NCBI GenBank assembly: GCA_027310625.1
Contig: DAIDAM010000002.1
Location: 1,123 to 65,122 of the forward strand
From: a bacterium
GTDB lineage: Bacteria; Patescibacteriota; Minisyncoccia; UBA6257; 2-01-FULL-56-20
Length of the DNA stretch: 64,000 bases
Direction: 5' to 3'
The notes beneath the pieces are model-generated. The model did no database searches. It saw only the letters and a program-made list of their open reading frames with translations, and was not told the DNA's origin. The translations under genes and the position numbers were made by a program. Below are positions 3,790 to 64,000 of this stretch, one piece after another (position 1 is the stretch's first letter; each line of letters opens with the position of its first letter).

Positions 3790-3868
3790 AGATTAGACAT
3801 TAGACATCAGTTATCAGACATCAAAAGTTATTCTAATTACTGATTACTGATGACTGATTATTATTAAC
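3790..3868. repeat. ~78-bp ATCAG/CTGAT-motif hairpin-forming intergenic repeat, copy 1
   Basis: Sequence gattagacattagacatcagttatcagacatca...ttactgattactgatgactgatta. The two arms are imperfect reverse complements. It is near-identical to 4166-4238. Confidence 0.6.
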
Positions 3869-4165
3869 TCAGGGCTTAATGATGTAACTCGTCGGCTGAA
3901 GAATGAAATCAACGACGCTTTTTATCGCGCCGCCGATTGTTTTTACCACTATCGCAAGACCGGCTTTGAACGTTTCAAAAAAGGCGAGCCCGTTGCCCCC
4001 TCCAATGTTTTGCTGTTCCGCCGGGCTCACAGGACCGAGAAGGGAGTTGAAATACTTCAGCCACAAAAAAACTACCACCGCTATCGCCACGCCGGAAAAT
4101 ACAAAAAGCCATTTCCTTTTTTCGGCGTCGTCGCTTTCCTGAATTTTTTTCAAAAAATCGTTCAT
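3869..4165 (-). CDS. small membrane protein, hypothetical
   Basis: 98-aa ORF with one hydrophobic helix (FVFSGVAIAVVVFLWL), located between gyrA and the MBL hydrolase gene on the same strand. Confidence 0.45.
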   Translation of the reverse strand: MNDFLKKIQESDDAEKRKWLFVFSGVAIAVVVFLWLKYFNSLLGPVSPAEQQNIGGGNGLAFFETFKAGLAIVVKTIGGAIKSVVDFILQPTSYIIKP

Positions 4166-4238
4166 TTTAGATTAGACATCAGACATCAGTAATCAGACAT
4201 TAGAAGTTTTAACCCTGATTTCTGATGACTGATTACTA
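4166..4238. repeat. ATCAG/CTGAT-motif intergenic repeat, copy 2
   Basis: Sequence gattagacatcagacatcagtaatcagacat...ctgatttctgatgactgattactattaac. It aligns with 3790-3868 along its whole length. Confidence 0.6.
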
Positions 4239-4799
4239 TTAACTGGCTTTCAGTATCACCGCCTTGTTTTTCATATTCTCCAAATCCTTTTTCTTGAAGA
4301 CGAATTTTTCCTGAACATCCGCTTTCTGCCCGAGCGCTTTTGCGAGCGCATCGGGCTTTTTTGAAAAGCTCGGTATCACCGCCGCCGGTTCCATTTTTTT
4401 CACGAGCTTCGCCGCGTCTTCCTCCGACAAAAAATGTTCGCCGACGGGAACGAAAAGCACGTCCTGTTCACTCAATTCTTCGGCGATTTCCGGTTCCAGT
4501 CCGTTTGAAAGATGGCCGAGAAAAACGAAACTTAAACCCTCCCATTTCACGAGATAAACCGACTTTATGAATTTCGCGGTTGATTCTTTCGTCACAGGCC
4601 AGCCGCGCACCTGCATGTCTTTTGCTTCATATTCTCCCGGGAAACCGATTTCGTTTTCAGTGGGCATTTCCGCCTCCGGCGAAGCGATCGTCCTTAAAAC
4701 AACGTCGCCTTTGAGGCGGTTGCTGTTCGGGTCAACAAGAAGCGAAACATCCCCGCTCTGCAATCGGAAACACCCGTCGCCGAAGTAATTGATAACCAT
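4239..4799 (-). CDS. MBL-fold metal-dependent hydrolase (UlaG/UPF0173-like)
   Basis: 186 aa. The N-terminal GDGCFRLQSGDVSLLVDP is a typical metallo-beta-lactamase-fold start. Confidence 0.6.
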   Translation of the reverse strand: MVINYFGDGCFRLQSGDVSLLVDPNSNRLKGDVVLRTIASPEAEMPTENEIGFPGEYEAKDMQVRGWPVTKESTAKFIKSVYLVKWEGLSFVFLGHLSNGLEPEIAEELSEQDVLFVPVGEHFLSEEDAAKLVKKMEPAAVIPSFSKKPDALAKALGQKADVQEKFVFKKKDLENMKNKAVILKAS

Positions 4800-12401: not shown

Positions 12402-12424
12402 CCATCACCGAATAACGAATCCGG

Positions 12425-12826
12425 TTGCGAATGAACGAATTAAAAAGAAAAGATTTAGTTTATCCAAATTTGAGCTATAAAATAATTGGATGTGCGTTTG
12501 ATGTACACAACAGTTTAGGCGATGGACATCATGAAAAGTATTACCAGCGAGCACTGGCAGAATCTTTTCGGCAAAACAATATTAATTTCAAACAACAAGT
12601 TTATTTTCCTTTGCAGTATCGCGGTAAAATAGTCGGGAGAAATTTCTTGGACTTTCTGGTGGAAGACAAAATTGTCGTCGAAATCAAAAAAGGAAACAGA
12701 TATTCCAAAAAGCACGTCAATCAGGTACTCGAATATTTAAAAATGACCAACACCAAGTTAGCCATTTTGATAAACTTTGGTTCCGATGGTGTTTCTTTCA
12801 AAAGAGTCGTAAACTTTAATTCGTAA
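12425..12826 (+). CDS. GxxExxY family protein (PD-(D/E)XK-like nuclease fold)
   Basis: 133 aa. The literal motif GHHEKYY follows CAFDVHNSLG. Size and context are typical of this family. Confidence 0.7.
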   Translation: MRMNELKRKDLVYPNLSYKIIGCAFDVHNSLGDGHHEKYYQRALAESFRQNNINFKQQVYFPLQYRGKIVGRNFLDFLVEDKIVVEIKKGNRYSKKHVNQVLEYLKMTNTKLAILINFGSDGVSFKRVVNFNS

Positions 12827-12863
12827 ATTCGTTCAAAATTCGTTATTCGTTGATGATAATAAC

Positions 12864-13376
12864 ATGAAATCCACCACTGTTCACGAGGACCAGCGCATAG
12901 GCATTTTCATTGACGTTCAGAATCTTTACCATTCCGCGAAAAACCTTTATCGCGGCAGGGTCAACTACAAAGAACTTCTGAAAAACCTCGTCGCCGGGCG
13001 AAAACTCATCCGTGCCGTGGCCTACGTCGTCAAAAGCGAAACCGCCGTCGGCGAAGCGGCGTTCTTCGAAGCGCTTGAAAAAGAGGGGCTGGAACTCCGC
13101 TCGAAGGATTTACAGATTTATCCCGACGGTACGAAAAAAGCCGACTGGGACGTGGGTATGGCGGTGGACGCAATCCGCATGGCGCCCTCGCTCGACTCCG
13201 TGATTCTGGTCACCGGCGACGGCGATTTCGTTCCGCTCGTGGAGTATATCAAGTGGGGAGTGGGCTCAATGGTTGAAGTCGCCGCCTTCAAAAGAAGCGC
13301 GTCGCTCAAGATTCAGGAAGCGGCCGACAGGTTTATAAATATGGAGGAGATACCGAGGATAATATTGCGCAAATAA
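12864..13376 (+). CDS. NYN domain (LabA/DUF88-like, PIN-related) protein
   Basis: 170 aa with IGIFIDVQNLY ... VILVTGDGDFVPLVE, the NYN acidic motifs. Confidence 0.7.
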   Translation: MKSTTVHEDQRIGIFIDVQNLYHSAKNLYRGRVNYKELLKNLVAGRKLIRAVAYVVKSETAVGEAAFFEALEKEGLELRSKDLQIYPDGTKKADWDVGMAVDAIRMAPSLDSVILVTGDGDFVPLVEYIKWGVGSMVEVAAFKRSASLKIQEAADRFINMEEIPRIILRK

Positions 13377-13487
13377 AAATCAGCATTAATCAGCCGCTAT
13401 CCGCATAAATCAGCGTCAAAAGTATTATTTCAGCCCTGAACGCTGATAGATGCTGATTTAGCCGATTGATGCTGATACGATGAATCA
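13377..13487. repeat. ATCAGC/GCTGAT-motif repeat cluster in the pnp 5' region
   Basis: Sequence aaatcagcattaatcagccgctatccgcataaatcagcg...gctgatagatgctgatttagccgattgatgctgatacg. The same motif grammar recurs at 27650-27770 and 40941-41023. Confidence 0.6.
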
Positions 13488-15590
13488 ATGACTAGAAAAC
13501 AATACACAACTGAAGTCGGCGGAAAAACGCTGACCATTGAAATCTCTCCTCTCGCAGAACAGGCAAACGGCGCCGCGCTCGCGAAATACGGCGAAACAGC
13601 GGTTTTGGTGACCGCGGTTATGGAAAAAAGGGAGGGCGATTTTGATTACGTCCCGCTCAAGGTTGACTACGAGGAAAGATTTTACGCCGCCGGAAAAGTT
13701 ATCGGTTCCAGATACATCAGGCGCGAAGGCCGTCCGTCGGAGGAAGCGGTTTTGTCGGCGCGGCTTGTGGACCGCGTCATCCGCCCGCTTTTTGACGAAC
13801 ACATCAGGAACGAAATGCAGGTGGTGGCGACCGTCCTCGCCTACGACGAGGAAAACGACCCCGACTTTGTGGGGCTGATGGCGGCGTCGATCGCGCTCGG
13901 AATCTCGGACATTTCCTGGAACGGGCCGGCCGCGGGCGTGCGCGTCGCGAAAATCGGCGGAAAAATCGTCGTCAACCCGACCTCGTCCGAAACAAAAAAC
14001 CCGGAGTGCGAGATGGAAATGTTCGCCGCCGGACCGAAAGGGAAAATAAATATGATTGAGCTCGGCGGGAAAGAAATTTCCGAAAAGGAAATCGTCTCGG
14101 CTTGCGAGGCGGCGCAGAGAGAAATAGACGAACTCATTCACTTTCAGGAAAAAATAATAAAGGAGAGCGGCAAGAAAAAAGCGGCCCTGAAACTTTTTGA
14201 AGTGGACGCGGAGTTTCGCGCCGAAGCGGAGAAATTTTTGAGAGAAAAAATCGAAAGCGCGATTTACAAGCCGAACAAGCTTGAATACACGGAGGCGATG
14301 GCCAACCTAAAAGCGGAGTACTTCGCCTTTATTTCCGCAAGCGAAAAGTTCGACGGCCGCTCGGCGAATCACGTCTGGGAAGAAGTCATTTGGGAAGTTG
14401 TCCAGAAAAACATTTTGGAAAAAGACAAACGTCCGGACGGCAGAAAACTCGGCGAAATCCGTAAGCTCGACGGCGAAGTGAAACTTTTCGAAAGGACGCA
14501 CGGCTCGGCGCTTTTTATAAGAGGCAACACGCAGACGCTCGCCGTGACGACGCTCGCCGCTCCCGGGGCGGAGCAGTTCATCGAGACGATGGAATTTACG
14601 GGCAAGCGGCGGTTTATGCTTCATTACAACTTTCCGCCTTATTCCGTCGGCGAAATCGGCTCTTTCCGCGGGCCGGGCAGGCGCGAAATCGGGCACGGCG
14701 CACTCGCGGAAAAAGCGCTCCGCTCCTTAATTCCTTCGCAGGAGGAATTTCCTTACACCGTCCGCGTCGTCGCCGAAACTCTTTCATCCAACGGCTCGTC
14801 TTCGATGGCGACGGTTTGCGCCTCCGCGCTTTCCCTGATGGATGCCGGCGTACCTCTCAAAAAACCGGCGGCGGGAATCGCAATGGGGATTGTGGAACGA
14901 CCAGCGACCAGCGACCAGCGACCAGAATATAAAATTTTAACGGACATTCAAGGTCCGGAGGATTTTTACGGCGGAATGGATTTCAAGGTCGCCGGCACGA
15001 GAGACGGCGTGACGGCGGTGCAGTTGGACGTCAAAATCCGCGGGCTCACTTCCGAAATGATTGAAAAAACTTTGGCGCAGGCAAAAGAGGCGCGCCTGCG
15101 GATACTTGATTTTATGAACGGCGTTTTGCCGTCGCCGCGCGAGAAACTTTCCGGCTACGCGCCGACGATAATCCAGCTCCGCATCAATCCCGAAAAAATC
15201 GGCGCCGTCATTGGTTCCGGCGGCAAGGTGATTAACGGACTAATCGAGAAATACAAACTATCGAGCATTGACATTGAAGAGGACGGCCGTGTTTTCATTT
15301 CGGCGGTTGACCGCGAACGCGCGGAAACGGCACTTGGCGAAATAAAAGCGTTGACGCGGGAATACAAAGTCGGCGAAATCGTCGAAGGCAAAGTTGTGAA
15401 ACTTCTGGATTTCGGAGCGATTGTCGATTTAGGCGGCGGCAAGGACGGGATGATCCACGTTTCTGAACTCAAGAATGGTTTCGTTAAAACCGTTAATGAA
15501 GTCGTCAAAGTCGGTGATTTCGTACGCGTGAAAGTGATTCGCGTTGACGCTGACGGGCACATCGGACTTTCGCTGAAGCAAATGGAGTAG
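13488..15590 (+). CDS. pnp: polyribonucleotide nucleotidyltransferase (PNPase)
   Basis: 700 aa with two RNase PH-like domains plus KH and S1 domains. The N-terminus MTRKQYTTEVGGKTLTIEI is typical. Confidence 0.95.
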   Translation: MTRKQYTTEVGGKTLTIEISPLAEQANGAALAKYGETAVLVTAVMEKREGDFDYVPLKVDYEERFYAAGKVIGSRYIRREGRPSEEAVLSARLVDRVIRPLFDEHIRNEMQVVATVLAYDEENDPDFVGLMAASIALGISDISWNGPAAGVRVAKIGGKIVVNPTSSETKNPECEMEMFAAGPKGKINMIELGGKEISEKEIVSACEAAQREIDELIHFQEKIIKESGKKKAALKLFEVDAEFRAEAEKFLREKIESAIYKPNKLEYTEAMANLKAEYFAFISASEKFDGRSANHVWEEVIWEVVQKNILEKDKRPDGRKLGEIRKLDGEVKLFERTHGSALFIRGNTQTLAVTTLAAPGAEQFIETMEFTGKRRFMLHYNFPPYSVGEIGSFRGPGRREIGHGALAEKALRSLIPSQEEFPYTVRVVAETLSSNGSSSMATVCASALSLMDAGVPLKKPAAGIAMGIVERPATSDQRPEYKILTDIQGPEDFYGGMDFKVAGTRDGVTAVQLDVKIRGLTSEMIEKTLAQAKEARLRILDFMNGVLPSPREKLSGYAPTIIQLRINPEKIGAVIGSGGKVINGLIEKYKLSSIDIEEDGRVFISAVDRERAETALGEIKALTREYKVGEIVEGKVVKLLDFGAIVDLGGGKDGMIHVSELKNGFVKTVNEVVKVGDFVRVKVIRVDADGHIGLSLKQME

Positions 15591-15672: not shown

Positions 15673-16644
15673 GTGATTATGGCACAGGAAACTAATCCCG
15701 AACGCGAGCCGCTGACGAGCGTTTCTCCTCCTCCGTTCGAAATCACCGTCAGGACGATGGCTTCCGACGTCGCTTCCATTGCGGCGAGCGGCGGCGGTCC
15801 GCCGAAACCCCATCCGATTAAAATACTTTCAAGAACAGCACAGGAAGTAGGCGGCGTTGGCGGCTTTATAAAAACCGCCGAAGCACCCCCGAAACCGGAG
15901 AAAAAATCAATCCTTTCTTTTTTCTCAAACCCCGTTTTTCTTTACTCGCTTTCGGGAGTTTTTCTGATTTCTGTTTTTCTCGGCGGGTATTTTTTCCTTT
16001 ACCCGCTTCTCAACCCTTCGCCAGCGGAAAAGGGCGGCGCGGCCAACGCGAACCCGCCGCCCGCGTTAACGGAGCATAAAACGTTTTTCAATAAAGTCCT
16101 TGACGGAACGTTTGCGTCTGAAATCACATCGCCGATTAGTGGCCTTGAAATGAAACGCGACGAAATTAACTCCTTCGTCAGCGCGGTTTCCGGCTCGTTT
16201 TTTGAGATAACGCCCGAAAACGGGGAGAGAAAACCGATTTCCGCGGCTGACTTTTTCACGCTTATAAACGGCAACATAATTAATGCTGAGTTTCTGCAAA
16301 ACAATTTTGAAAGCGATTTCACTTTTTATTTGTACAGAAAAGACGGCGGACTTTTCCCGGGATATATTTTGCGCCTAAATGAAAATAAACTGAAAATTCT
16401 CACTGAGAGTTCCGTGCAGTCGAGGATAGAAAGCGCGTCATCAACCTGGACCAATCTCTTTTTTGATTATCCGGGCGATGCGAATGGGCAGTTCAGGAGC
16501 GAACTTTTGAGCGGACAGCCAATAAGAATTTTGAACTTCACAAACGCCTCAAGCGTCCTTGCCTACGGCTGGTTCGGAAACAACAGATATTTGATTATCA
16601 GCACGTCGCTTGAAGGTTTAAAGCAGGCGATTTCGCGATTCTGA
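15673..16644 (+). CDS. hypothetical membrane protein
   Basis: 323 aa with a Pro-rich N-terminus and one transmembrane helix. Confidence 0.45.
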   Translation: MIMAQETNPEREPLTSVSPPPFEITVRTMASDVASIAASGGGPPKPHPIKILSRTAQEVGGVGGFIKTAEAPPKPEKKSILSFFSNPVFLYSLSGVFLISVFLGGYFFLYPLLNPSPAEKGGAANANPPPALTEHKTFFNKVLDGTFASEITSPISGLEMKRDEINSFVSAVSGSFFEITPENGERKPISAADFFTLINGNIINAEFLQNNFESDFTFYLYRKDGGLFPGYILRLNENKLKILTESSVQSRIESASSTWTNLFFDYPGDANGQFRSELLSGQPIRILNFTNASSVLAYGWFGNNRYLIISTSLEGLKQAISRF

Positions 16645-18706: not shown

Positions 18707-20851
18707 TTATTGCTCTAGAGAAGTATCTTTGCTGATATATACTTCTCTTGGTTTAGCGCCTTCGCCGGGACCGATGATGCCTTTTTCCTCCATTAAATCA
18801 AGGAGGCGCGCGGCGCGAGCATACCCGACCTTTAGGCGCCTTTGGAGAAGAGAAGCCGACGCTTTTTGCGCCTGTCTCACCACTTCCACCGCCTCATCGT
18901 ACATTTCGTCGCCGTCCTCTTCAAGCGAGTCGTCGAAAAGCGAAACGCCGCCGTTGCCGTTCCCGTTTTCTGCCGCGAATTGTATTTCTTCTTCGGCTAG
19001 AGCGGCATTGTTTTCGCGGATGAAATCTGCGACTTTTTTCGTTTCTTCTTCCGAAATATAGGCGCCCTGGATGCGTTTCGGTTTGGAAAGTTCGGAGGAG
19101 ACAAAAAGGAGGTCGCCCGCGCCGAGAAGTTTTTCTGCGCCGGAGGTGTCAATGATTGTTCTTGAATCAACCTGGCTTGCGACCTGAAGAGCGATTCTCG
19201 ACGTGATGTTTGCTTTGATTAAGCCGGTGATGATTTCCACCGACGGCCTTTGCGTCGAGAGAACGAGATGAATTCCCGTCGCCCGCGCCATCTGCGCAAG
19301 CCGGACAACAAACCCTTCCACTTCGCGTCCGTAGGAGGTCATCAGGTCGGCGAGTTCATCAACGATTATCACTATATAAGGAAGTAATTCATCGCTGTTG
19401 GCTGTTGGCTGTTGGCTGTTGGCTTTGCCATTGTAGCTCTTGATATCGCGGCTGCCGGATTTTTGCAAAAGCTCGTATCTTTTTTCCATTTCCTTTATCG
19501 CCCAGCGGAAAACGGCGAGCGCTTTTTTGTTTTCGACAATCACCGGGCTGACGAGATGCGGAATGCCTTCGTAGATGGAAAGCTCCACGCGCTTGGGGTC
19601 GAGCATAATCAGTTTCAGCGTCGTCGGCGAATTTTTATAAAGCAGCGAAACAATCAGCGACTGAATCATTATTGATTTGCCGCTGCCCGTGGAACCCGCT
19701 ATCAAAAGGTGCGGCATCTTCTCGAGGTCGGCGAAAATCGGTTCGCCGGTAACGTCGCGTCCGAGCGAAAATCCGAGAAGCCCGGAGGAATTGAATTCCG
19801 GATACGCCATCAAACTGCCGAGCCGGACGAGCGCCGCCGCTTTGTTCGGCACTTCGATGCCGACGAGAGATTTCCCGGGAATCGGCGCTTCGATTCTTAT
19901 CGGGTGAGCGGCAAGAGCGAGCGCGAGGTCTTGATTTAGCGCCGTGATCCGCGACAATTTCACCCCTTCGGCGGGCTTGAGCGTGTAGCGCGTTACCTTG
20001 GGACCGATATTTATCTCGCCCATTTCCACGGGGATGCCGAAGCTGTCCAATGTTCTTTTGATGATGTTCGCGTTCGCGCGGAGGTCGCCGGTGGTGGGTT
20101 TTTCTACGGAGGATTTCAAAAGCTCGAGTGGCGGAGGAACATAATTTGCGAAGCTCGGGCGCGGCGTTCTCCTCGCTTTTTTAACCGGCTCCGATTTCGC
20201 CGCTTCCGGCCTCGGCTCGGGAATTTCCTCTTCCTTTTCTTCCTGTTCCTTTTCGGCGGCGGCGATTTTCTTTTCTTCAACGGGCGCAAGGAGCGGCGCC
20301 CCTTCCGGCGCGGATTTCTCCGGCCATTTTATTTTCAGCGGAGCGTTCAGCGTCACGAGTATCGCCGAGACGAAAATTATCGAGTTAATTATTATCGCGG
20401 CGAGATTGCCGAAGGGGATTTTGAGCGAACCGAGAATCACTCCGAGCCAGCCGCCGTTCCCCGAAGTAGCGATATCAATTAGGCCGAGCGCCGAGAGCAT
20501 CATCAGAAAGCCGCCGAGGAGCGTCATGCCGACGAACAATTTTTTCTCCGAAATCAGGAATACGCCCGCGACCGCAAGAAGTATTGTCGGCAGGGCAAAA
20601 TATCCCAATCCCAAAAGCGTTTCAAAAATTCCGAGAAGAAATTCTCCGCCGGGACCAGCTTTATGAAATCCGGCGAGAAAAAAAATTACGGCGAGTCCCA
20701 CGAGCGCAACCGCCCAGATGCTCCGCTTCGTTTCCGGATGGAGACGGTGTTCTTTCGCGCGTTTGCCCCCGCGGTTGCCGCCGCGTTCCGCGACATCGCG
20801 CCCGTTTTTATCACCGTTGTTTCTCGCCATTTCTCTAAAAGTATATTTCAT
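18707..20851 (-). CDS. ftsK: DNA translocase FtsK
   Basis: 714 aa with N-terminal transmembrane helices, a Pro/Glu-rich linker and the FtsK/SpoIIIE ATPase (LIAGSTGSGKSIMIQSLIVSLL). Confidence 0.9.
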   Translation of the reverse strand: MKYTFREMARNNGDKNGRDVAERGGNRGGKRAKEHRLHPETKRSIWAVALVGLAVIFFLAGFHKAGPGGEFLLGIFETLLGLGYFALPTILLAVAGVFLISEKKLFVGMTLLGGFLMMLSALGLIDIATSGNGGWLGVILGSLKIPFGNLAAIIINSIIFVSAILVTLNAPLKIKWPEKSAPEGAPLLAPVEEKKIAAAEKEQEEKEEEIPEPRPEAAKSEPVKKARRTPRPSFANYVPPPLELLKSSVEKPTTGDLRANANIIKRTLDSFGIPVEMGEINIGPKVTRYTLKPAEGVKLSRITALNQDLALALAAHPIRIEAPIPGKSLVGIEVPNKAAALVRLGSLMAYPEFNSSGLLGFSLGRDVTGEPIFADLEKMPHLLIAGSTGSGKSIMIQSLIVSLLYKNSPTTLKLIMLDPKRVELSIYEGIPHLVSPVIVENKKALAVFRWAIKEMEKRYELLQKSGSRDIKSYNGKANSQQPTANSDELLPYIVIIVDELADLMTSYGREVEGFVVRLAQMARATGIHLVLSTQRPSVEIITGLIKANITSRIALQVASQVDSRTIIDTSGAEKLLGAGDLLFVSSELSKPKRIQGAYISEEETKKVADFIRENNAALAEEEIQFAAENGNGNGGVSLFDDSLEEDGDEMYDEAVEVVRQAQKASASLLQRRLKVGYARAARLLDLMEEKGIIGPGEGAKPREVYISKDTSLEQ

Positions 20852-21041
20852 CCCGCACCTTTCACAATACCACTCTGCCTACAAAGGCGATAAATCCAAG
20901 TAAGTTCTCTTTACAGATTCAATGTCATTCCAAAAGGTGCGGGATTCAAAAACATCCATTGTTGAAGCGTTAAGAATGCAAAAGGCGCCGAAGCGACGCC
21001 TTTGCTTCTTTCTCGTTTTTTTCAACTTGCAAAGTCAGCGG

Positions 21042-21281
21042 TGGATCCGGAGGGCGAGGAAAGGCACAAAGGTTTAAAACAAACAACCGCCGAGGTTCAG
21101 GGATTTGTGCTCCGTCTGAGATCATCCCCGCGATGATGAGTACGTCGGTGCGAGGGAAGAGAAAAAACTCCCGAACCATTAATGAGAATTCCCTTTTCAG
21201 GAAACCTCTACCCGCCACGTGGGTAACGAGTTTTTTTCTCGCCTGATGACGAGAGAATGCCTGTCCTGCTCTCCGGATCCA
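21042..21281. repeat. inverted-repeat-bounded structured element, an RT-less paralogue of the element upstream of the reverse transcriptase
   Basis: An 11-nt perfect inverted repeat TGGATCCGGAG (21042-21052) / CTCCGGATCCA (21271-21281). Its 52-nt core at 21184-21235 is 50/52 identical to 22496-22547. Confidence 0.5.
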
Positions 21282-21415
21282 GTCCACCTTGCCCATTAAG
21301 AGGGCTGAGGTGCAAGCTTGACCCGTCTCTGTACAGAAACGAGCTGCTTGCGGGACCTACCTAAATTTTATCATGTAAAGCTGCGCAGTCAAATTTTTTT
21401 GATAAAAAAAGAACG

Positions 21416-22354
21416 TCAGGTCGCACCCGACGTTCCCGATCGTTTCGCAATCGCCTGGCATTCCCTGAACCGGCGGACGAGCTTAAGTTCCGTCGTGTTC
21501 ATGGCTCCAAGACGACGTGCGTCATGGGTGGAATCGCGGAAAACACCCATCATCCCTGCGAGCTTTCGGTACAGGTCAACGTTTCGCTTGAAGACGATGC
21601 GCGCGAGGCCGCGGATTTTTCTTAGGTAGAACCGCGGCAGCATCATGCGTGCCGGAGAATTCACGCCGCGCCACTCGAGGCGGACGCCATTCATCGTAAT
21701 CGGCCCTTTCTTCAGGTCGGCCACCGTTGACTTCCGGTTATTGACCTGAAATCCGGCTTCTTTCATCGCTTCTCTTATAGCCGCGCGCTTCCTCCAGCCA
21801 ATCGGTTGCTTCGCCGAGAACGACAGGTCGTCTAGGTAGCGGGTATAGATAAGATGATGTTTTTCGGAGAGCTCCATCATCTTCCCGTCCATCAGTACCG
21901 CGGCGTAGACGTTGAAAAGGTCGGGGGACGCAGGAGCGCCGATGACCAACCCGCCCTTTTGCGAAAGGCAGTACTTCGCGAGGAACTCCGCAGTTTCTTC
22001 TTCTTCGCCGAAGAGTTCCGGGTTTGCCGCCGAGAGGATTTCGGTAAGTTTCCTGCCGTCAACCGATTGGTAGGCGTTCATGATATCGGTGAGATAGAAA
22101 TACCTGTTCTTCAGATGTTGTCGGACGCTTTCTCTCACCGATTTCCCCGGTTGCGCGCCGAAAGCGTAATCCATTCTTATTTTCAGCTTCCGTAATTCAC
22201 AAATCAGGCGCGCGTGAAGAATACGCATCGGCTCATTCGGGTCGCCTATTGTTCTTATTTTTTTCGTGCCGCCGAGCGGATTCTTATCGACATACCGGAA
22301 AGTTCGGAATTCCGGTTTTCCTTCAATTCCTTCAGTCAACTTGTTAAGGTACAT
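21416..22354 (-). CDS. reverse transcriptase, retron-type
   Basis: RT motifs DIMNAYQSV (motif 1), GGLVIGAPASPDLFNVY (motif 4, GAPxSP) and YTRYLDDLSFS (catalytic YxDD in the retron-style RYxDDLxFS context). The ATG at 22354 is preceded by AAGGAGG. Length is about 312 aa with no maturase or endonuclease domains. Confidence 0.8.
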   Translation of the reverse strand: MYLNKLTEGIEGKPEFRTFRYVDKNPLGGTKKIRTIGDPNEPMRILHARLICELRKLKIRMDYAFGAQPGKSVRESVRQHLKNRYFYLTDIMNAYQSVDGRKLTEILSAANPELFGEEEETAEFLAKYCLSQKGGLVIGAPASPDLFNVYAAVLMDGKMMELSEKHHLIYTRYLDDLSFSAKQPIGWRKRAAIREAMKEAGFQVNNRKSTVADLKKGPITMNGVRLEWRGVNSPARMMLPRFYLRKIRGLARIVFKRNVDLYRKLAGMMGVFRDSTHDARRLGAMNTTELKLVRRFRECQAIAKRSGTSGAT

Positions 22355-22380
22355 CCTAACCTCCTTGTAGAAATCAGCGG

Positions 22381-22598
22381 GAGACCTAGGGACGACTTGA
22401 AGCGTAGAGCCAGACAACAACCGCTGAGGTCTGGGATTCCTGCCTCGGCCCCCGTGGCGGCACGGGTGCAGGGGAGAAAAGCCAAGACCCGTATTGAGAG
22501 TTCCCTTTTCAGGAAACCTCTACCCGCCACGTGGGTGACGAGTTTTTGCTACCCTCATTGGTAGAGCCAAGCGCGCTTCTCGCCGTTCCCTAGGTCTC
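22381..22598 (-). ncRNA. candidate retron msr/msd non-coding RNA: a 12-nt perfect inverted repeat bracketing ~195 nt immediately upstream of the RT
   Basis: GGAGACCTAGGGA at 22380-22392 and TCCCTAGGTCTC at 22587-22598. The RT-proximal copy lies 27 nt upstream of the RT ATG. The internal sequence is GC-rich with several hairpins (CCCGUG-CCGC-CACGGG; CUCUACC...GGGUAGAG). Confidence 0.4.
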
Positions 22599-24124: not shown

Positions 24125-24261
24125 TATGCCCCGTAAGAAACAGCGAGAAAATATAAATATTTTTGAGCTAATGTTACGGGCAACGGCACAAAAGTTGCTT
24201 CAGATAGCTGAAAAGTCGAACCAATGTTCACAAAAAATATTTAATTTCTTACGGGGATGCC
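24125..24261 (+). mobile_element. hairpin-ended element of the CCCCGTAAGAAA / TTTCTTACGGGG family (empty copy)
   Basis: Left end TATGCCCCGTAAGAAA (24125-24140) and right end TTTCTTACGGGGATGCC (24245-24261). Roughly the first 45 nt and last 25 nt match the copy at 32631-32772. The right end supplies the ATG of the downstream gene. Confidence 0.45.
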
Positions 24262-24751
24262 CGAATTTTTCAACAGCTCATTGGGACTTAAAATGACCGT
24301 CCGCCAGGTGGCGGACGAAATTGTCCGCTTTATGAAAGCGGAGCCGAAGCGGAAATATAAAATCATGGTCGGCACGGATTCCGAGCGCCTGATGGACGGA
24401 CGCGCCGATTTTGTGACGGCGGCGGTTGTCCACCGCGTCGGCAACGGCGGACGCTATTTTTGGCGGCGCGCGCAGCTCGGAAAATTTCATACCCTCCGCG
24501 ACCGCATCATCCGCGAGGTCTTGATTTCCATTGACCTCGGCAAGGGAATACTTACCGAATTGAGGAATCTTTCCGATAAATCCGGCGCGATGCCCGAGTG
24601 GGATTTTGAAATTCACGCCGACGTCGGCGAAAACGGCCCCACGAAAGCGATGATTCAGGAAGTCGTCGGCATGATTCGCGCGCACGATTTCGAACCGATT
24701 ACGAAGCCGGCGAGCTACGCGGCGTCCAACGTCGCCGACCGCCACGTGTAG
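24257..24751 (+). CDS. YkuK/DUF458-like protein (RNase H-like fold)
   Basis: 164 aa with YKIMVGTDSE, which resembles the DUF458 core as I remember it. I did not run a search. Confidence 0.45.
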   Translation: MPEFFNSSLGLKMTVRQVADEIVRFMKAEPKRKYKIMVGTDSERLMDGRADFVTAAVVHRVGNGGRYFWRRAQLGKFHTLRDRIIREVLISIDLGKGILTELRNLSDKSGAMPEWDFEIHADVGENGPTKAMIQEVVGMIRAHDFEPITKPASYAASNVADRHV

Positions 24752-24845
24752 GAGTAGTCGCCAATAACGCGAATATTGGCGAAATAATGCGAATAAAATT
24801 CGCGTTATTATAAAACAAAAATCAGCGTTATTCGCGATTACTCCT

Positions 24846-26261
24846 ATGCAGAGAATTTACCTCGATTACGCCGCTTCCACGCCCGTTGCGCCGGAAGTGG
24901 AGCGGGCGATGCGCCCGTACTTTATAAAAGAGTTCGGCAACGCCGGCTCACTCCATTCTTTCGGACAGAAAGCGATGGCGGCGATTGACGAGTCGCGCGA
25001 AACGATTGCAAAAGCCATCGGCGCGGATTTCCGCGAAGTGATATTCACCGCCTCGGCGACCGAGAGCAATAATATTGCTCTCCGCGGAATAACGCAGACC
25101 GCACGCAGAACAACGCGGAATTTTTTCAGCGTGAGTCCGCGTACAGTCCGCGTAAGTCCGCGGCCGAGATTAATAATCTCGGCAATAGAACACGAATCCG
25201 TTCTTGAAACAGCGCGCGACCTAGCCGCCCCCTTTATCAATAAAAATGGGGCGAGCCTCGCCCCTCCAGGGCGGGAGAAAGACGGCGTGGAAGTTGTTTA
25301 TCTGCCGGTTTCCAAAGGCGGCATTGTTGATTTGAAAAAACTCAAGGAGTCACTAAACGAACGGACGATTTTGGTTTCGGTGATGTACGCCAATAACGAG
25401 ATTGGAACCATTCAACCAATCGCGGAAATTTCAGAAATAATCAGAAATTTCCGAGAGACCAGGGACCAGCGACTAGCGACAAAGGGAAAAGACTGGTCTC
25501 CGGTTTCTGGTCTCTATCCTCTCTTCCACACCGACGCCGTCCAGGCATTCCAGTTTCTTGATTGTGATGTGAAAAAACTCGGCGTCGATTTGATGACGCT
25601 TTCGGCGCACAAAATTTACGGACCGAAAGGGATCGGAGCGTTATATGTTCGAAGTTCGGCGTTCGGAGTTCGAAATGAAAAAGACAATCGAACAATTCGA
25701 ACCTCGAACCTCGAACCGATAATTACCGGCGGCGGCCAGGAATTCGGGCTTCGCTCCGGAACGGAAAACGTCCCGCTCATCGTCGGTTTCGCGAAAGCCG
25801 TTTCGCTCGCCGCTAAACTCCGCGAGAAGGAATCAAAAAGAATCGGAGACCTCCGCGATTATTTATGGAGGGAGTTGAAAAAGATTTATCCACCTGCGCA
25901 GGTTAACGGTCAATTTTCATCAACGAATAACGAATCAATTTCGAATAAACGAATTCGTGAATTCGGGACGAATTCGCTATTCGCCGATATTCTTCCGAAT
26001 TTTCTGAATGTTTACTTTCCCGACTACAAGGCGGAGGACCTGCTGACGCGGTTTGATTTGGCGGGCATTGCCGTTTCCGCCGGTTCGGCATGCGCGGCGC
26101 GTTCGACCGAGCCGTCCTATGTCATAAAAACCCTTGTTTTGGGGATGAAACAACCCAGCCGCAGTATTCGTATTACTTTAGGGAGGCCGACGAGCAAAAA
26201 AGACATTGACATAACCCTAAAATTGGCTAGAAAATTATTTGCCACCAATGCCAGGCGGTAG
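24846..26261 (+). CDS. cysteine desulfurase (IscS/NifS family) carrying several repeat-derived in-frame insertions
   Basis: N-terminal YLDYAASTPVAPEV, the PLP-lysine region SAHKIYGPKGIGALYV and the active-site loop SAGSACAARSTEPSYV. It is 471 aa against about 400 aa for typical members. The extra segments map onto repetitive DNA at 25131-25163, 25454-25513, 25646-25718 and 25921-25989. Confidence 0.8.
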   Translation: MQRIYLDYAASTPVAPEVERAMRPYFIKEFGNAGSLHSFGQKAMAAIDESRETIAKAIGADFREVIFTASATESNNIALRGITQTARRTTRNFFSVSPRTVRVSPRPRLIISAIEHESVLETARDLAAPFINKNGASLAPPGREKDGVEVVYLPVSKGGIVDLKKLKESLNERTILVSVMYANNEIGTIQPIAEISEIIRNFRETRDQRLATKGKDWSPVSGLYPLFHTDAVQAFQFLDCDVKKLGVDLMTLSAHKIYGPKGIGALYVRSSAFGVRNEKDNRTIRTSNLEPIITGGGQEFGLRSGTENVPLIVGFAKAVSLAAKLREKESKRIGDLRDYLWRELKKIYPPAQVNGQFSSTNNESISNKRIREFGTNSLFADILPNFLNVYFPDYKAEDLLTRFDLAGIAVSAGSACAARSTEPSYVIKTLVLGMKQPSRSIRITLGRPTSKKDIDITLKLARKLFATNARR

Positions 26262-27649: not shown

Positions 27650-27770
27650 GCCGTAGAATATCGGCATAAATCAGCCCGCATCGGCATTTATCAGCGTTAA
27701 AAGTTCGGCGACATAGTTCCACGCTGATTTATGCTGATTGTTGCGGATAGATGCTGATAAATAAACTAAA
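27650..27770. repeat. ATCAGC/GCTGAT-motif repeat cluster in the clpB 5' region
   Basis: Sequence cggcataaatcagcccgcatcggcatttatcagcg...gctgatttatgctgattgttgcggatagatgctgataaat. Confidence 0.6.
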
Positions 27771-32317: not shown

Positions 32318-32772
32318 TATGCCCCGTAAGAAATAGTTATGTTTTATGTCTATATTTTACAAAGTGAAAAAGACGGCAAACTATATGCAGGGTTCACATC
32401 CGACCTCAGAAAAAGATTACTAAAACATAACTCCGGCAAAGTATTTTCAACGAAGTCGCGCAGGCCACTCAAATTAATTTACTGTGAAGTATGCACCAAT
32501 GAGCAAGATGCAAAACAACGAGAAAAATATTTTAAGGCGGGGGCTGGCAAGAAATTCATCAAAAACAGACTGAGAAATTATTTTCAAGGCCATATTATGA
32601 CATCAACAAAAATATTTTAGTTTCTTACGGGGTATGCCCCGTAAGAAATGGCGAGAAAATGAAAAATATTTTTGAGCAAAGATTAAGGAATATCAAATAT
32701 GAAATCGATAACTGAATATTGTAAGGTCGGGCTGATGTCAACAAAAATATTTTAGTTTCTTACGGGGTATGC
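32318..32772 (+). mobile_element. composite hairpin-element locus: CCCCGTAAGAAA inverted repeats precisely bracketing a GIY-YIG gene, followed by an empty tandem copy
   Basis: Left half TATGCCCCGTAAGAAATAG (32318-32336). Full 12-bp-stem hairpin TTTCTTACGGGG-TATG-CCCCGTAAGAAA (32621-32648) directly after the GIY-YIG stop. Right half TTTCTTACGGGGTATGCC (32755-32772) supplies the ATG of the next gene. Confidence 0.5.
32339..32620 (+). CDS. GIY-YIG nuclease family protein (small YhbQ/URI-domain type)
   Basis: 93 aa with FYVYILQSEKDGKLYAGFTSDLRKRLLKHN, the GIY...YIG motifs with the conserved R and N. Confidence 0.8.
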   Translation: MFYVYILQSEKDGKLYAGFTSDLRKRLLKHNSGKVFSTKSRRPLKLIYCEVCTNEQDAKQREKYFKAGAGKKFIKNRLRNYFQGHIMTSTKIF

Positions 32773-33509
32773 CAAAAACCATTCAGGAGGAATTCCTTTA
32801 TAAGAAGGTTTATGAATTCAGCTACGCCACTTTGAGAATATCCTCATCGGCAAAGAACAGGGAAGTTGCCGAAATTCTCGAAGGCAGGGCATTTTCGCTG
32901 CTCAATTCCGTTTTGACTGCCGATTACAGTAAAACGAGCGACACAGTTAATTCCATAATCAGTATTTCGGGCTTGTTGGTTGACGGCGGATTTCTTCATC
33001 CTGCAAACAAAGAAATACTTCAGAGGGAATCGGAAAGCATCCATCTCGCGATAAAAGCTTTGCCGAAGAAAAAAGAAGTTCTCCAAGATCTTGGTCTCGG
33101 AAAAATATTTTCAAAATCGCCATTGCCGAAACGGCAAATTGTCGATAAACCCGTGAAGCAGGTCCAATCGGCAATGGGCAATGGCGAATCGGAAATTTCC
33201 GATAAAACCGTTGCCGATAAAATTTCCGATGGAATTTCCGATAAAAACTCTTTTAAATACGAATCGGAAAAACGGCAATCGGCAATAATCGGCAAATTGC
33301 GACAAGTTGAGAATTGCCGATTAAATGATCTACAAGCACTTTTCCCGAACATAAGCGACAGGACGCTTCGTTACGATATAGAATCGCTTATCTTAAAAGG
33401 CGTGGTTGAGAGGGTGGGAAGCAGGAGAAACAGCGTTTACCGGCTTAAAAACACTTTCGGAACGGCCATAGAACTGCCGGCTTCTTCCTCGCCGGTCCGG
33501 ACGGCGTAA
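32769..33509 (+). CDS. hypothetical protein with a C-terminal winged-helix DNA-binding-like segment
   Basis: 246 aa. The C-terminus NDLQALFPNISDRTLRYDIESLILKGVVERV resembles a DeoR/wHTH fold, and the N-terminus weakly resembles the four-helix-bundle family. Confidence 0.45.
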   Translation: MPKTIQEEFLYKKVYEFSYATLRISSSAKNREVAEILEGRAFSLLNSVLTADYSKTSDTVNSIISISGLLVDGGFLHPANKEILQRESESIHLAIKALPKKKEVLQDLGLGKIFSKSPLPKRQIVDKPVKQVQSAMGNGESEISDKTVADKISDGISDKNSFKYESEKRQSAIIGKLRQVENCRLNDLQALFPNISDRTLRYDIESLILKGVVERVGSRRNSVYRLKNTFGTAIELPASSSPVRTA

Positions 33510-37461: not shown

Positions 37462-37577
37462 GATAAACATTGATAAATTTAGATAAAGATTGAGAAAGAT
37501 TGTGACGCTAATTGATTGACGAGTTGTGGCAAAAAAGATAAAAATGGATAAAAATTGATGACATAGACTTATATGAT

Positions 37578-37940
37578 TTGGAAGTTTACAAATTGAGCAA
37601 AGAAATTTCCAAAGAATGCTGGGAAATTTATAAGAAGCTTGACTGGCAAACGAGGAAAACAATCGGTGACCAGTTTATATCTGCAATTGATTCAATTGGC
37701 GCCAATGTCGCGGAGGGCTTCGGAAGGTTCCATTATTTAGACAGGAATAAATTTAACTACAACGCGCGAGGTTCGCTCTTGGAATCTTTGCATTGGGTTG
37801 ATTTGCTGAAAGACCGTGGTTTTATCAGTAAAGAAATCCATGCAAACTTGAACGGAAATTTAAGGACGCTTATGGTAAAGCTGAATAACTACATAGTTTC
37901 TACGAAGAATAAAAACAAGGAGAAAAGCAAAGTTCTCTAA
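37578..37940 (+). CDS. four-helix-bundle protein of the Avd / 23S rRNA intervening-sequence protein family
   Basis: 120 aa with SIGANVAEGFGRFHYLDRNKFNYNARGSLLES, the family signature. Confidence 0.8.
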   Translation: MEVYKLSKEISKECWEIYKKLDWQTRKTIGDQFISAIDSIGANVAEGFGRFHYLDRNKFNYNARGSLLESLHWVDLLKDRGFISKEIHANLNGNLRTLMVKLNNYIVSTKNKNKEKSKVL

Positions 37941-37994
37941 CAACATTTACTCAACATTTATCTACTTTTATCTATGTTTATCTTTATTTGACTT

Positions 37995-40940: not shown

Positions 40941-41023
40941 CGCCGATTGATGCCGATACGGCTGATTTGTGCTGATTAAAAATACATCGGCATCCATCAG
41001 CTTAAATCCGCATAAATCAGCGG
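40941..41023. repeat. ATCAGC/GCTGAT-motif repeat cluster
   Basis: Sequence gccgattgatgccgatacggctgatttgtgctgatt...catcagcttaaatccgcataaatcagcggc. Confidence 0.6.
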
Positions 41024-45904: not shown

Positions 45905-45959
45905 ATTTTGTTTGAAAATTGAACAAAGTGAAAATTTTCATTACAAAATCTTAACCGAG

Positions 45960-46122
45960 CACATAAATTTATGAATATACCAAACAATAGAGAATTAAGT
46001 AATCGCAGCACAAACCAGCCATATTATATTAATCGTTTGATTAAATTTATGTGCTCGGTGCTCAATTTTGAATACCGCTCGGTCTGCGGTATAACTACCT
46101 TGCCCTCGCGGGCAAAATTACC
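45960..46122 (+). promoter_or_regulatory. pilus-gene leader module, copy 1 (interrupted variant)
   Basis: ACCGAGCACATAAATTTATG...AAATTTATGTGCTCGGTGCTCAATTTTG...CGCTCGGTCTGCGGTATAACTACCTTGCCCTCGCGGGCAAAATTACC then ATG. It shares its 3' ~75 nt with copies 2 and 3. Confidence 0.5.
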
Positions 46123-47576: not shown

Positions 47577-47730
47577 AGGTCTTTGCCTAAATTTTGGAGC
47601 ATGAAATGCAAACAAAATTTATCGCAAACACCTTTACCGAGCACATAGGTCTATTATGTGCTCGGTGCTCAATTTTGCAGCCGCTCGGGCTGCGTTATAA
47701 AATTAACTTGCCCTCGCGGGCAAAATTGGC
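47577..47730 (+). promoter_or_regulatory. pilus-gene leader module, copy 2 (in front of pilB)
   Basis: About 150 nt near-identical to 50660-50813. Contains the hairpin GAGCACATA-GGTCTAT-TATGTGCTC, a candidate -35/-10 pair (TTGCAG, 17 nt, TAAAAT) and the hairpin TTGCCC-TCGC-GGGCAA abutting the ATG. Confidence 0.5.
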
Positions 47731-49461: not shown

Positions 49462-49489
49462 TAGAATGAAATCAACTAATAACTAATCA

Positions 49490-49581
49490 ATTGCGAATAA
49501 ACGAATTCGCTCCTACGCCGTCGAGAGTCCTCGATGTAATCGGGATAAATTAGAAAAAGATTCGCTATTCGCCGATGATAA
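49490..49581. repeat. CGAAT/ATTCG-family repeat in the pilB-pilT intergenic region
   Basis: Sequence ttgcgaataaacgaattcgc...gattcgctattcgccgat. The same strings occur in-frame inside the cysteine desulfurase gene (25946-25989). Confidence 0.6.
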
Positions 49582-50659: not shown

Positions 50660-50813
50660 ATGTCTTTGCCTAAATTTTGGAGCATGAAATGCGAACAAAA
50701 TTTATCGCAAACACCTTTACCGAGCACATAGGTCTATTATGTGCTCGGTGCTCAATTTTGCAGCCGCTCGGGCTGCGTTATAAAATTAACTTGCCCTCAC
50801 GGGCAAAATTGGC
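50660..50813 (+). promoter_or_regulatory. pilus-gene leader module, copy 3 (in front of pilC)
   Basis: Differs from copy 2 at only about 3 positions. Confidence 0.5.
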
Positions 50814-63122: not shown

Positions 63123-64000
63123 TTATTTTAGCCCTTTTACGATTTTTTTAAACTTCTCGCCGCGGTCGGCGTAATCTTCAAACATATCGAAGCTCGTGGC
63201 GCCGGGAGAAAATATAATAGTGACCCGTGACCAGCGACCAGTGACCGGTATATTTTTAGCAAAATCATAAGCCCTGCGTACGGCCTCATTTAAATTTTTG
63301 CACATTATTACCGGTCTCTGGTCTCTAGTCCCTATTTTCTTAATTGCTCTTGCGATTTTGTTTTTATTTTCACCGAACAAAATTATCAGTTTCGTATTCG
63401 AACCCATCAACGCTCGCGCCAGCGGCTTATAGTCCAGATTTTTGTCCTGCCCGCCGGCAATTAAAATAAGTGACCTGTGACCGGCGACGGGCAACAAAGA
63501 TAATTTATTGTCTCTTGTCTCTTGTCTCTTGTTGCTAAACGCCATTATTGCCGCTATCGTCGTTTGCGGATTTGTGGACGCAGAGTCATTATAAAATTCA
63601 ATCGTCGCGGATTTACGCGGATTGTTGGGCGGATTTACGCGGATGTTATTTTTATTCGTGGCATTCGGATGTATTCGCAGATTCGGATTGCGTATTTGAC
63701 GGACGAATTCCAGGCGGTGTTCGTTGCCCCTGAAATTAACCGCAACTTCGCGAATTATTTTGTCCGGCACGCCGAGCGATTTTGCGACTGCCGCGGCCAT
63801 CACGGCGTTTTTAAAATTGTGGAAACCCTTAATCTTCAAGTCGTTCGGCGAAAATAATCTGAAGGTTTTTTCATCAACGCCGATTTTTTTACCTTTTCCG
63901 AAGTCGGCGATTTTTTTGCTTAAGGTGCTATTTTTTCCGCCCGAGGCGGAAAAGAAGAATATTTTATCGCCCGGCTTTTGATAACGCGCGATGTTTGCCT
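63123..64000 (-). CDS. murD: UDP-N-acetylmuramoyl-L-alanine--D-glutamate ligase, C-terminal two thirds (N-terminus lies beyond the window end)
   Basis: GFHNFKNAVMAAA, HRLEFV and EFYNDSASTN are Mur ligase central and C-terminal motifs. The C-terminal SFDMFEDYADRGEKF matches the MurD end. My own translation shows the reading frame stays open through position 64000. Confidence 0.8.
   Translation of the reverse strand, partial: ANIARYQKPGDKIFFFSASGGKNSTLSKKIADFGKGKKIGVDEKTFRLFSPNDLKIKGFHNFKNAVMAAAVAKSLGVPDKIIREVAVNFRGNEHRLEFVRQIRNPNLRIHPNATNKNNIRVNPPNNPRKSATIEFYNDSASTNPQTTIAAIMAFSNKRQETRDNKLSLLPVAGHRSLILIAGGQDKNLDYKPLARALMGSNTKLIILFGENKNKIARAIKKIGTRDQRPVIMCKNLNEAVRRAYDFAKNIPVTGRWSRVTIIFSPGATSFDMFEDYADRGEKFKKIVKGLK

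Follow-up and report, generated by a model that had tools for sequence, protein, structure and literature searches.

The DNA analysed here is a 64,000-nt stretch (the window) of contig DAIDAM010000002.1 from an uncultured, ultra-small bacterium of the Patescibacteriota, within the Candidate Phyla Radiation (CPR). It holds a gene for a type I, IscS/NifS-like cysteine desulfurase (24846-26261, + strand), an intact open reading frame (ORF) of 471 amino acids (aa) that carries five inserts. All five inserts were hairpin or short-period repeat DNA with a length divisible by three and no stop codons, and their predicted translations were basic and hydrophilic. The initial annotation of the window had recognised the 471-aa ORF and four repeat segments inside it. 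The segments were present within 1-3 nt of their given positions and the quoted peptides were correct, but a fifth insert (25224-25274) had been overlooked, and the segment at 25131-25163, a real repeat, had a left partner arm with which it formed an 82-nt hairpin (25082-25163).

The IscS/NifS-like assignment was borne out by domain and structure searches. PF00266 (Aminotran_5) covered the whole protein (E = 8e-58), with the match split into two stretches by the inserts, and the best solved relative was the A. fulgidus IscS (4r5f, E = 5e-67). The closest proteins came from Patescibacteria (Parcubacteria; Liptonbacteria-like), and the orthologues were between 386 and 531 aa long. Across 119 aligned orthologues, residues H116, D230, S253, K256, C416, and R442 were invariant, and Q233 and H255 were conserved in at least 90% of sequences. 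From the roles known in E. coli IscS, we take K256, in the S-x-H-K motif, to be the lysine that binds pyridoxal 5'-phosphate (PLP) and C416, in the S-x-G-S-A-C loop, to be the catalytic cysteine. Scores against the NCBIfam equivalog models were under the cut-offs (NifS, 320 bits vs 530.75; IscS, 303 vs 643) because the inserts break the alignment into two or three stretches, and the protein was therefore assigned at family level only. A first AlphaFold2 (AF2) run on a 22-sequence alignment was too poor (predicted local distance difference test, pLDDT, 64), and a rerun on the 119-sequence alignment was used instead (mean pLDDT 82; predicted template modelling score, pTM, 0.86). In a Foldseek search the core of this model matched human NFS1, E. 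coli IscS, and NifS-like proteins (E = 3e-36, target-normalised TM score 0.85-0.92). Judged from its conserved residues and its model, the cysteine desulfurase looks functional, with a predicted activity.

The folding of each insert was scored against 200 dinucleotide shuffles of the same segment; all five inserts lie on the + strand. Insert 1 (25082-25163) was the 82-nt hairpin (inverted repeat I2), with a left arm at 25082-25120 and a right arm at 25131-25163 made of CGCGGA/TCCGCG cores at a period of about 10 nt; it encodes approximately aa 82-106 (ITQTARRTTRNFFSVSPRTVRVSPR) and folded with z = -5.1 (25078-25167). Insert 2 (25224-25274) was a 51-nt GC-rich hairpin with GGGGCGAG-C-CTCGCCCC that encodes aa 127-143 (AAPFINKNGASLAPPGR; z = -2.3). 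Insert 3 (25454-25515; inverted repeat I6) was a hairpin of GACCAGN heptamers and their complements, encoding approximately aa 204-224 (z = -4.0 over 25448-25520). Insert 4 (25641-25722; inverted repeats I4/I5) was a hairpin of GTTCGRN heptamers and TCGAACC complements, encoding approximately aa 268-291 (z = -4.95 over 25636-25726), and its first unit overlapped the conserved V-R codons. Insert 5 (25919-25988) was a 70-nt palindromic element of the family ATCAACGAATAACGAAT...ATTCGnTATTCGnTGAT that encodes SSTNNESISNKRIREFGTNSLFAD (z = -2.5 over 25912-25995). The hairpins of the inserts exceed chance. Predicted peptides across the insert junctions include ...VNGQFSSTNNESISNK and IREFGTNSLFADILPNFLNVYFPDYK.

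The start of the gene was bordered by a further hairpin. An intergenic inverted repeat of GCGAATA-type units (I1; 24749-24846, + strand; z = -9.4) extended from the upstream gene's TAG stop codon as far as the first base (A) of the IscS ATG, and was matched at 87% over 47 nt in locus L055. The IscS ATG was without a Shine-Dalgarno sequence, and the hexamer directly in front of it, ACTCCT, pairs with AGGAGT right after the upstream TAG, about 90 nt off, at the base of the hairpin. This pairing may serve translational coupling or occlusion.

In the residue alignment with 4r5f, the solved protein was gapped exactly at all five inserted segments, by 12 aa at insert 2 and by 15 aa at insert 4, and in the AF2 model each insert fell between two regular secondary-structure elements. 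The low-confidence blocks of the model were the five inserts, with insert 4 the lowest-confidence stretch, and the catalytic cysteine loop, which is flexible in cysteine desulfurases. Placement in the PLP-binding core, which the initial annotation had named as evidence against its reading, was not found, and the catalytic residues were kept.

To follow the inserts among close relatives, we aligned by codon the IscS genes of the window and of two syntenic genomes, GCA_030650255.1 (L001) and GCA_030699605.1 (L002), with which it shared the gene order PNPase - RecA - FtsK - ... - RNaseH-like - IscS - HtrA - ClpB. Between the window and these relatives 281 of 337 RecA residues and 764 of 887 ClpB residues were identical with zero indels; the genomes are therefore close, and IscS is the outstanding variable gene. 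At site 1 the window and L001 had a CGCGGA-type hairpin in common, while L002 carried DNA almost identical to insert 5 of the window, read in a different frame (HQRITNQKRINEFVNSKRIRYSLM instead of SSTNNESISNKRIREFGTNSLFAD). Site 2 was an exact 17-codon presence/absence difference, insert 2 being missing from both L001 and L002. Sites 3 and 4 held a repeat family that differed from genome to genome, with an AAATCYGAAA-type element at site 3 of both relatives. At site 5 the element was missing from L001, and the L002 copy had a second, GC-rich hairpin (CCGCCCGCCTTGCTTCGCAACGCGAAGCGGGCAGG; element at L002 11104-11209) nested in its loop. A perfect GC-rich hairpin, AAAGGCGGCCTGCCTGCGCCTGTCAGCGCAGGCAGG (KGGLPAPVSAGR), was also seen at approximately 2197-2232 of L001, in the orthologue of window ORF 15673-16644. 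The idea of in-frame elements gained from this comparison, since presence/absence, swaps, and a frame change were all seen at the insert sites of L001 and L002.

One DNA sequence read in two frames, and loops holding different elements, place the conservation at the level of DNA. In insert 1, 12 of the 14 nucleotide differences between the window and L001 were at unpaired positions of the hairpin (hypergeometric P = 1e-4), and the differences were spread over the codon positions 4/4/6, with no bias. By these substitutions, constraint or homogenisation on insert 1 acts at the level of the nucleic acid, on its stems or core units, and the peptide is not its target.

Site lengths were measured between fixed anchor residues in the 119 CPR orthologues. 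Site 1 spanned 14-65 aa, site 3 spanned 6-53 aa, site 4 spanned 13-55 aa, and site 5 spanned 5-58 aa, with an insert well over the minimum in 71-83% of orthologues (one joint range for these four sites). Site 2 spanned 3-27 aa, with an insert in 8%. Five control stretches were constant in length or nearly so. Inserts of at least 33 different lengths kept the reading frame, their predicted peptides varied in sequence and length, and orthologues of 386-393 aa had no inserts. The insert sites of the predicted proteins are shown to be lineage-wide hotspots of length change. In calling the gene a hotspot, the initial annotation was right about the four main sites; the phenomenon itself extended across the genome and the lineage.

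Insert 5 gave the clearest view of dispersal. A search with an exact 19-mer taken from the left arm hit 67 stretches of a species-representative genome collection, and a palindrome of about 70 nt, ATCAACGAATAACGAATCAA...CGAATTCG...ATTCGnTATTCGnTGAT, recurred nearly unchanged in Staskawiczbacteria, Jorgensenbacteria, Sungiibacteria, Liptonbacteria, Saccharibacteria, and other Patescibacteria. The ends of the elements were ATCAACG...CGTTGAT. The usual place of the CPR copies was from a stop codon to the next start codon, and the window itself held one such intergenic copy with extra loop sequence (49471-49576, + strand; nhmmer E = 1.7e-10). Three CPR copies were in frame in long ORFs of other kinds: two in a UvrD/PcrA-like helicase (L060, partly L020), with the same STNNES...NKRIRKF...LFAD peptide, and the third in an MnmA-like protein (L047). 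On each strand two frames of the family are free of stops, and coding copies used only those. These copies indicate, from their sequences, that insert 5 belongs to a dispersed family of mobile DNA. Outside the CPR, the ACGAATN unit of insert 5 occurred as long direct heptamer arrays in Saprospiraceae, Lewinellaceae, and a deltaproteobacterial metagenome-assembled genome (MAG). Loci with such arrays were L003, L006, L025, L027, L028, L031, L063, and others, Phaeodactylibacter MAGs included, and 10 were in the deltaproteobacterial MAG WY5.bin12; many of the arrays stopped a few bases short of a start codon, like TAACTGA repeats.

Short-period arrays were frequent throughout the window. Tandem Repeats Finder (TRF) returned 20 arrays of period 7 against 1.05 expected (19-fold) and 12 of period 10 against 2.55 expected (5-fold), and the modal period was also 7 in 17 other CPR loci. 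Fourteen of the 20 period-7 arrays were within ORFs, and the other 6 were in intergenic DNA, which makes up approximately 10% of the window. Successive copies of a 7-nt unit fall into each of the three frames in turn. A unit can survive in a gene only if none of its frames contains a stop, and only three-unit steps preserve the frame. The GACCAGN dimer of insert 3 had 18 matches (0.11 expected) at 7 loci and in 5 ORFs of the window, namely in GyrA, PNPase, the spacer after PNPase, IscS, LigA, and, twice, a Mur-ligase-like ORF, and AGACATC units occurred at three loci.

Four of the genic arrays illustrate the pattern in housekeeping genes. PNPase had a CGACCAG x4 array found by TRF (14898-14925, + strand; predicted peptide RPATSDQRPE), a 6-aa insertion relative to 5yjj. 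The NAD-dependent DNA ligase had an AGACATC x4.4 array, also from TRF (56093-56123, + strand), and further arrays at 57207-57236 and 57402-57426; compared with E. coli LigA (2owo), its arrays appeared as insertions of 6 aa and 11 aa. FtsK had a GCTGTTG x4.4 array (19394-19424, - strand; predicted peptide KANSQQPTANS) at a site that varied among the three syntenic genomes, and GyrA had an in-frame array of GTCTCTG, the complement of GACCAGA (1487-1513, - strand). Direct-only arrays without a partner arm were also present (14898, 15596, and 57402).

Folding in the sense and antisense directions was compared for 16 hairpins, and no consistent bias was found; selection for host mRNA structure is therefore not indicated. 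An apparent strand asymmetry in the insert-5 family, where the same strand folded better in 13 of 13 copies, was not used, the copies having been picked by an exact match to one arm, and strand folding was mixed in the few copies free of that selection. Rfam at gathering thresholds returned three tRNAs only from the window, with no rRNA gene and no hairpin matching a described RNA family.

Two elements in the window had ORFs between paired arms. The first was a relative of the insert-5 element (12403-12855, + strand), in which the arms 12403-12420 and 12838-12855 matched at 17 of 18 positions, with longer gapped similarity, and flanked a gene (12431-12826) for a 131-aa GxxExxY nuclease of the PD-(D/E)XK type (PF13366, E = 1.5e-34; TIGR04256, E = 1.4e-36). 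GxxExxY homologues from Saccharibacteria (one genome, 72% aa identity) and Liptonbacteria (one genome, 68%) had the same arms around them, and insert-5-type arms flanked a GxxExxY gene in three genomes (the window, L054, and L055). The element stood just before fusA in L054 (1900-2390) and L055 (1350-1820), and also in L070, L094/L095, L103, and L141. This recurrence before fusA in at least 6 loci of distant CPR lineages suggests either that the insertion is ancient or that the element homes to a specific site. Scanning of metagenomes yielded 57 distinct loci with a GxxExxY homologue, 44 of which had terminal inverted repeats around the ORF; the control used 20 shuffles of each locus, and the best shuffle reached 7 of 57. 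In the flanks of these loci 5-mer self-matches peaked at 8, 7, 10, and 11 nt, 5- to 13-fold over shuffles, and the genes next to them fell into 78 clusters among 142 flanks, representing many contexts.

The second element (37462-37982, + strand) carried an ORF (37578-37940) for a four-helix-bundle '23S rRNA intervening sequence protein' (PF05635, E = 2.8e-21; TIGR02436) between inverted GATAAA arms of 10-nt period; the 36-nt arms at 37462-37497 and 37947-37982 matched at 30 positions. A Saprospiraceae homologue was flanked by inverted ACGAATN arrays, and paired ends with a PF05635-family ORF inside were seen in L033. These arrangements suggest that the hairpins may be ORF-less derivatives of GxxExxY or PF05635 elements.

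A third candidate was a 98-aa ORF at 3869-4165 (- strand), in the region 3790-4240 with 28-nt inverted arms of CTGATKA/AGACATC heptamers (25 of 28 matching). It had zero homologues among 5.8 billion proteins and so cannot be called a cargo gene; it is either orphan cargo or non-coding DNA between two hairpins. The only polymerase-like gene in the window was a retron-type reverse transcriptase (21416-22420, - strand; RVT_1, E = 3e-14; PADLOC retron reverse transcriptase types VI/III-A, E about 1e-26; below NCBIfam cut-offs), with a 108-aa orphan ORF (20970-21296) downstream and no visible tie to the repeats. This block was missing at the syntenic position in L001/L002, which had a phosphoglucomutase there instead.

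Taken together, we consider it very probable that a working type I cysteine desulfurase accumulated five insertions of dispersed palindromic repeat families, which were kept in frame and translated. The resemblance to Rickettsia palindromic elements (RPEs), already proposed in the initial annotation, is supported by the gaps at the inserts, the kept catalytic residues, the dispersed in-frame insert-5 family, the length variation at the four main sites beside invariant controls and indel-free RecA and ClpB, and the constraint on stems. Elements with arms of iterated 7-nt or approximately 10-nt units would spread as DNA into spacers and genes, presumably by copy-and-paste, and a coding copy would persist only if it were a multiple of three bases, had a stop-free frame, and lay in a tolerant loop. 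Transcription and translation of the persisting copies would then give the protein hydrophilic and probably disordered excursions. Across Parcubacteria the same four or five IscS loops have been hit or remodelled again and again, which makes IscS a hotspot by tolerance, and possibly by target preference too. The ORF-bearing GxxExxY or intervening-sequence (IVS) protein relatives may be the autonomous forms that supply a mobilising or arm-binding activity.

Several points weigh against this reading. A Pfam, NCBIfam, and PADLOC scan of approximately 55 ORFs of the window gave no DDE, Y1, or serine recombinase and no recognised transposase, and the ends of the insert-5-family copies showed no target-site duplication beyond the palindrome itself. 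In a blastn search of about 0.8 Mb of related loci, inserts 2-4 had no close copies outside this genome; insert 1 was matched in L001. We infer translation from every insert being in frame and stop-free, and the orthologue proteins were gene-caller output, in which disrupted alleles are invisible. Some arrays also take conserved codons of the native gene as their start, the one at site 1 opening with CGC GGA and the one at site 4 with GTT CGA, which agrees with local growth as well as with insertion.

On the last of these points a local, non-mobile origin could be built, in which slippage or snap-back (template-switch) synthesis duplicates a 7- or 10-nt native piece and then makes an inverted copy, the loops growing and shrinking in situ. 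Site 4 of L001 likewise starts on native codons (CGA AGC), the sequence of the unit changes between loci and genomes while the period remains 7, and the arrays without a partner arm, like the lack of close copies of inserts 2-4 in other sampled genomes, would be expected from such a process. We nevertheless regard it as unlikely, since the insert-5 sequence of about 70 nt is conserved across CPR classes, in unrelated genes, in spacers, and in two frames of IscS, GACCAGN units are repeated identically at 7 loci of the window and AGACATC units at 3, and the same site holds different families in sister genomes. Once an element is in place, local expansion probably adds to it, but this process cannot explain everything; a share probably also falls to expansion that native sequence seeds, or to targeting through terminal microhomology.

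That the inserted peptides are adaptive, for example as arginine-rich surface loops that bind tRNA or partner proteins and are kept for that function, appears quite improbable to us. Partners of IscS include tRNA-modification proteins, the inserts are basic and hydrophilic, and most orthologues carry something at sites 1, 3, 4, and 5. However, neither the sequence nor the length of the peptides is conserved among orthologues, one and the same DNA sequence is used in more than one frame, the nucleotide changes within a shared insert track the stems and ignore codon position, and the orthologues of 386-393 aa do without inserts.

Loss of the hairpins at the RNA level, by IVS-like excision with RNase III, by an intron-like process, or by ribosomal bypass, would leave no extra peptides at all. 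All five inserts are whole codons without stops, coding copies of the insert-5 family are confined to stop-free frames, and the 119 orthologues hold frame through at least 33 insert lengths; RNase III cutting without ligation would also split the mRNA in two, and the sense strand has no consistent folding advantage. The stems are strong, and the PF05635 and PF13366 ORF families are known from rRNA intervening sequences that RNase III excises (PMC4990558, PMC11270868), but we judge removal or skipping to be highly improbable. A decaying pseudogene, or repeats that are assembly artefacts, is scarcely credible, for although the contig comes from a MAG and the equivalog scores are sub-cut-off (320 bits vs 530), the ORF is intact with all catalytic residues conserved, the IscS-like model is confident, more than 100 independently assembled orthologues have the same pattern, and the low scores are accounted for by inserts splitting the alignment.

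If the preferred reading of dispersed, in-frame elements is extended, the hairpins could be ORF-less forms of unrecognised small selfish elements, with arms that are protein-binding arrays of units at a 7-8 or 10-11-nt period and autonomous forms encoding a GxxExxY nuclease or a four-helix-bundle IVS protein. One system might then account for rRNA IVSs, for the heptamer arrays known from Cyanobacteria, Bacteroidota, and Beggiatoaceae, and, in the CPR, both for the hairpins between genes and for the in-frame remodelling of proteins. We put this forward tentatively, as a possibility that we doubt more than we believe.

Other repeats and repeat-rich ORFs were noted in the window. An inverted-repeat family (ATG)CCCCGTAAGAAA / TTTCTTACGGGG was present at 24129-24256, 32319-32333, 32621-32648, and 32756-32773. 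One pair bracketed a 93-aa GIY-YIG nuclease ORF (32339-32620), and two pairs closed structures of about 105 nt that ended at the starts of an RNaseH-like ORF (24257) and of ORF 32769-33509; Rfam gave no match for these structures. Three copies of a palindrome, ACCGAGCACATA...TATGTGCTCGGT, stood between genes of the type IV pilus operon (PilM, PilB, PilT, PilC), at 45954-46059, 47636-47666, and 50719-50749, two of them identical with the same 7-nt loop; the palindrome may be an operator or terminator. Three intergenic hairpins (13372-13482, 27653-27758, and 40961-41021) with ATCAGC/ATCCGC/ATCGGC cores at a 10-nt period stood directly 5' of the starts of PNPase, ClpB, and ORF 41024, and shared their core family with insert 1 and with the site-1 inserts of many IscS orthologues (e.g. 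ISVNQRPR). Arrays or hairpins were also dense in ORF 63123-63839 (- strand; weak Mur_ligase_C match; at 63219, 63309, 63508, and 63606) and in ORF 32769-33509 (+ strand; weak helix-turn-helix DeoR-like domain; at 33109-33195 and 33277). These two ORFs may be heavier carriers of inserts than IscS, or may be mis-called.

CPR genomes are tiny and strongly streamlined, yet they tolerate selfish hairpins in cysteine desulfurase, gyrase, PNPase, DNA ligase, and FtsK, and selfish DNA appears to add loops to essential proteins across the CPR lineage. If the inserts are translated, they would keep supplying new surface loops and disordered segments, and would explain much of the length variation of CPR proteins and of their low scores against family models. 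Masking of such segments is advisable in annotation pipelines and in structure prediction. The link to GxxExxY and IVS proteins would give two large families of unknown role a testable function, and suggests a possible origin of the cyanobacterial heptamer repeats.

In the full-text literature, with subscription journals outside the scope, there was no prior account of CPR bacteria with transposable elements of the miniature inverted-repeat kind (MITEs), palindromic elements, or in-frame insertions, and the comparison was made with systems known from other organisms. Tandem heptamer repeats, the short tandemly repeated repetitive (STRR) sequences, were described in cyanobacteria decades ago. 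TAACTGA repeats occur in Beggiatoaceae, Cyanobacteria, and Bacteroidetes (PMC4679880). Both resemble the CPR arrays in their tandem 7-nt units at many loci, often beside start codons. They are, however, direct and overwhelmingly intergenic, with one dominant unit per genome, whereas the CPR window has many units, commonly paired as inverted arms, and 14 of its 20 period-7 arrays are in ORFs. Borg tandem repeats create disordered protein regions (PMC9879509), and here too fast-evolving repeat DNA in ORFs would add disordered, hydrophilic segments; the genic repeats of Borgs are perfect and direct with a unit divisible by three, while the CPR unit is 7 nt, and most of the CPR inserts are palindromic.

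Intervening sequences of rRNA with an internal ORF are known from the Coxiella S23p IVS (PMC4990558) and from CPR rRNA insertions (PMC11270868). They share with the CPR elements paired ends, a long stem, an optional PF05635 ORF in the loop, and the character of selfish DNA in an essential gene, but they lie in rRNA helices and are excised by RNase III, whereas the CPR elements lie in or between protein genes and are apparently translated. MITEs and the repetitive extragenic palindromic (REP) sequences and REPINs are, like the CPR elements, short hairpin-forming repeats that are non-coding and scattered through the genome, and the gene for the REP-associated tyrosine transposase (RAYT), their presumed mobiliser, is flanked by inverted REPs (PMC3116915, PMC3733652). 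A gene flanked by its own inverted repeats is common to both systems. The CPR elements differ in having no GTAG/CGTC head and in not being confined to extragenic DNA, and the flanked gene encodes a GxxExxY PD-(D/E)XK or four-helix-bundle protein in place of an IS200-like tyrosine transposase. With MITEs the CPR elements share their small size, non-coding nature, terminal inverted repeats, and many genomic contexts; the absence of target-site duplication and of a known transposase among the approximately 55 ORFs, counted above among the adverse points, weighs against a simple MITE model as well, and the GxxExxY protein is no known transposase.

The closest parallel is with the RPEs, in-frame palindromic repeats in many Rickettsia genes (Ogata et al. 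2000, 2002, summarised in PMC10969869). As that summary presents them, RPEs are, like the CPR elements, multi-copy palindromes that occur in frame in unrelated housekeeping genes, leave the ORF intact, are found in intergenic DNA too, and are predicted to be compatible with the fold of the protein. They are given there as approximately 100-150 bp long with a family consensus and no internal short period, in an intracellular alphaproteobacterium, whereas the CPR elements are 50-82 bp long, are made of 7-nt or approximately 10-nt units, and reside in a free-living or epibiotic CPR bacterium. In the CPR several inserts occur per gene, the same loops are re-used across the lineage, and an ORF-bearing relative exists. 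By this analogy the CPR elements would work like RPEs but are not members of the RPE families, from which size, arm architecture, and host phylum set them apart. They would provide a second, independent example of the Rickettsia phenomenon, one that helps to tell general features (tolerant loops, stop-free palindromes) from lineage-specific ones.

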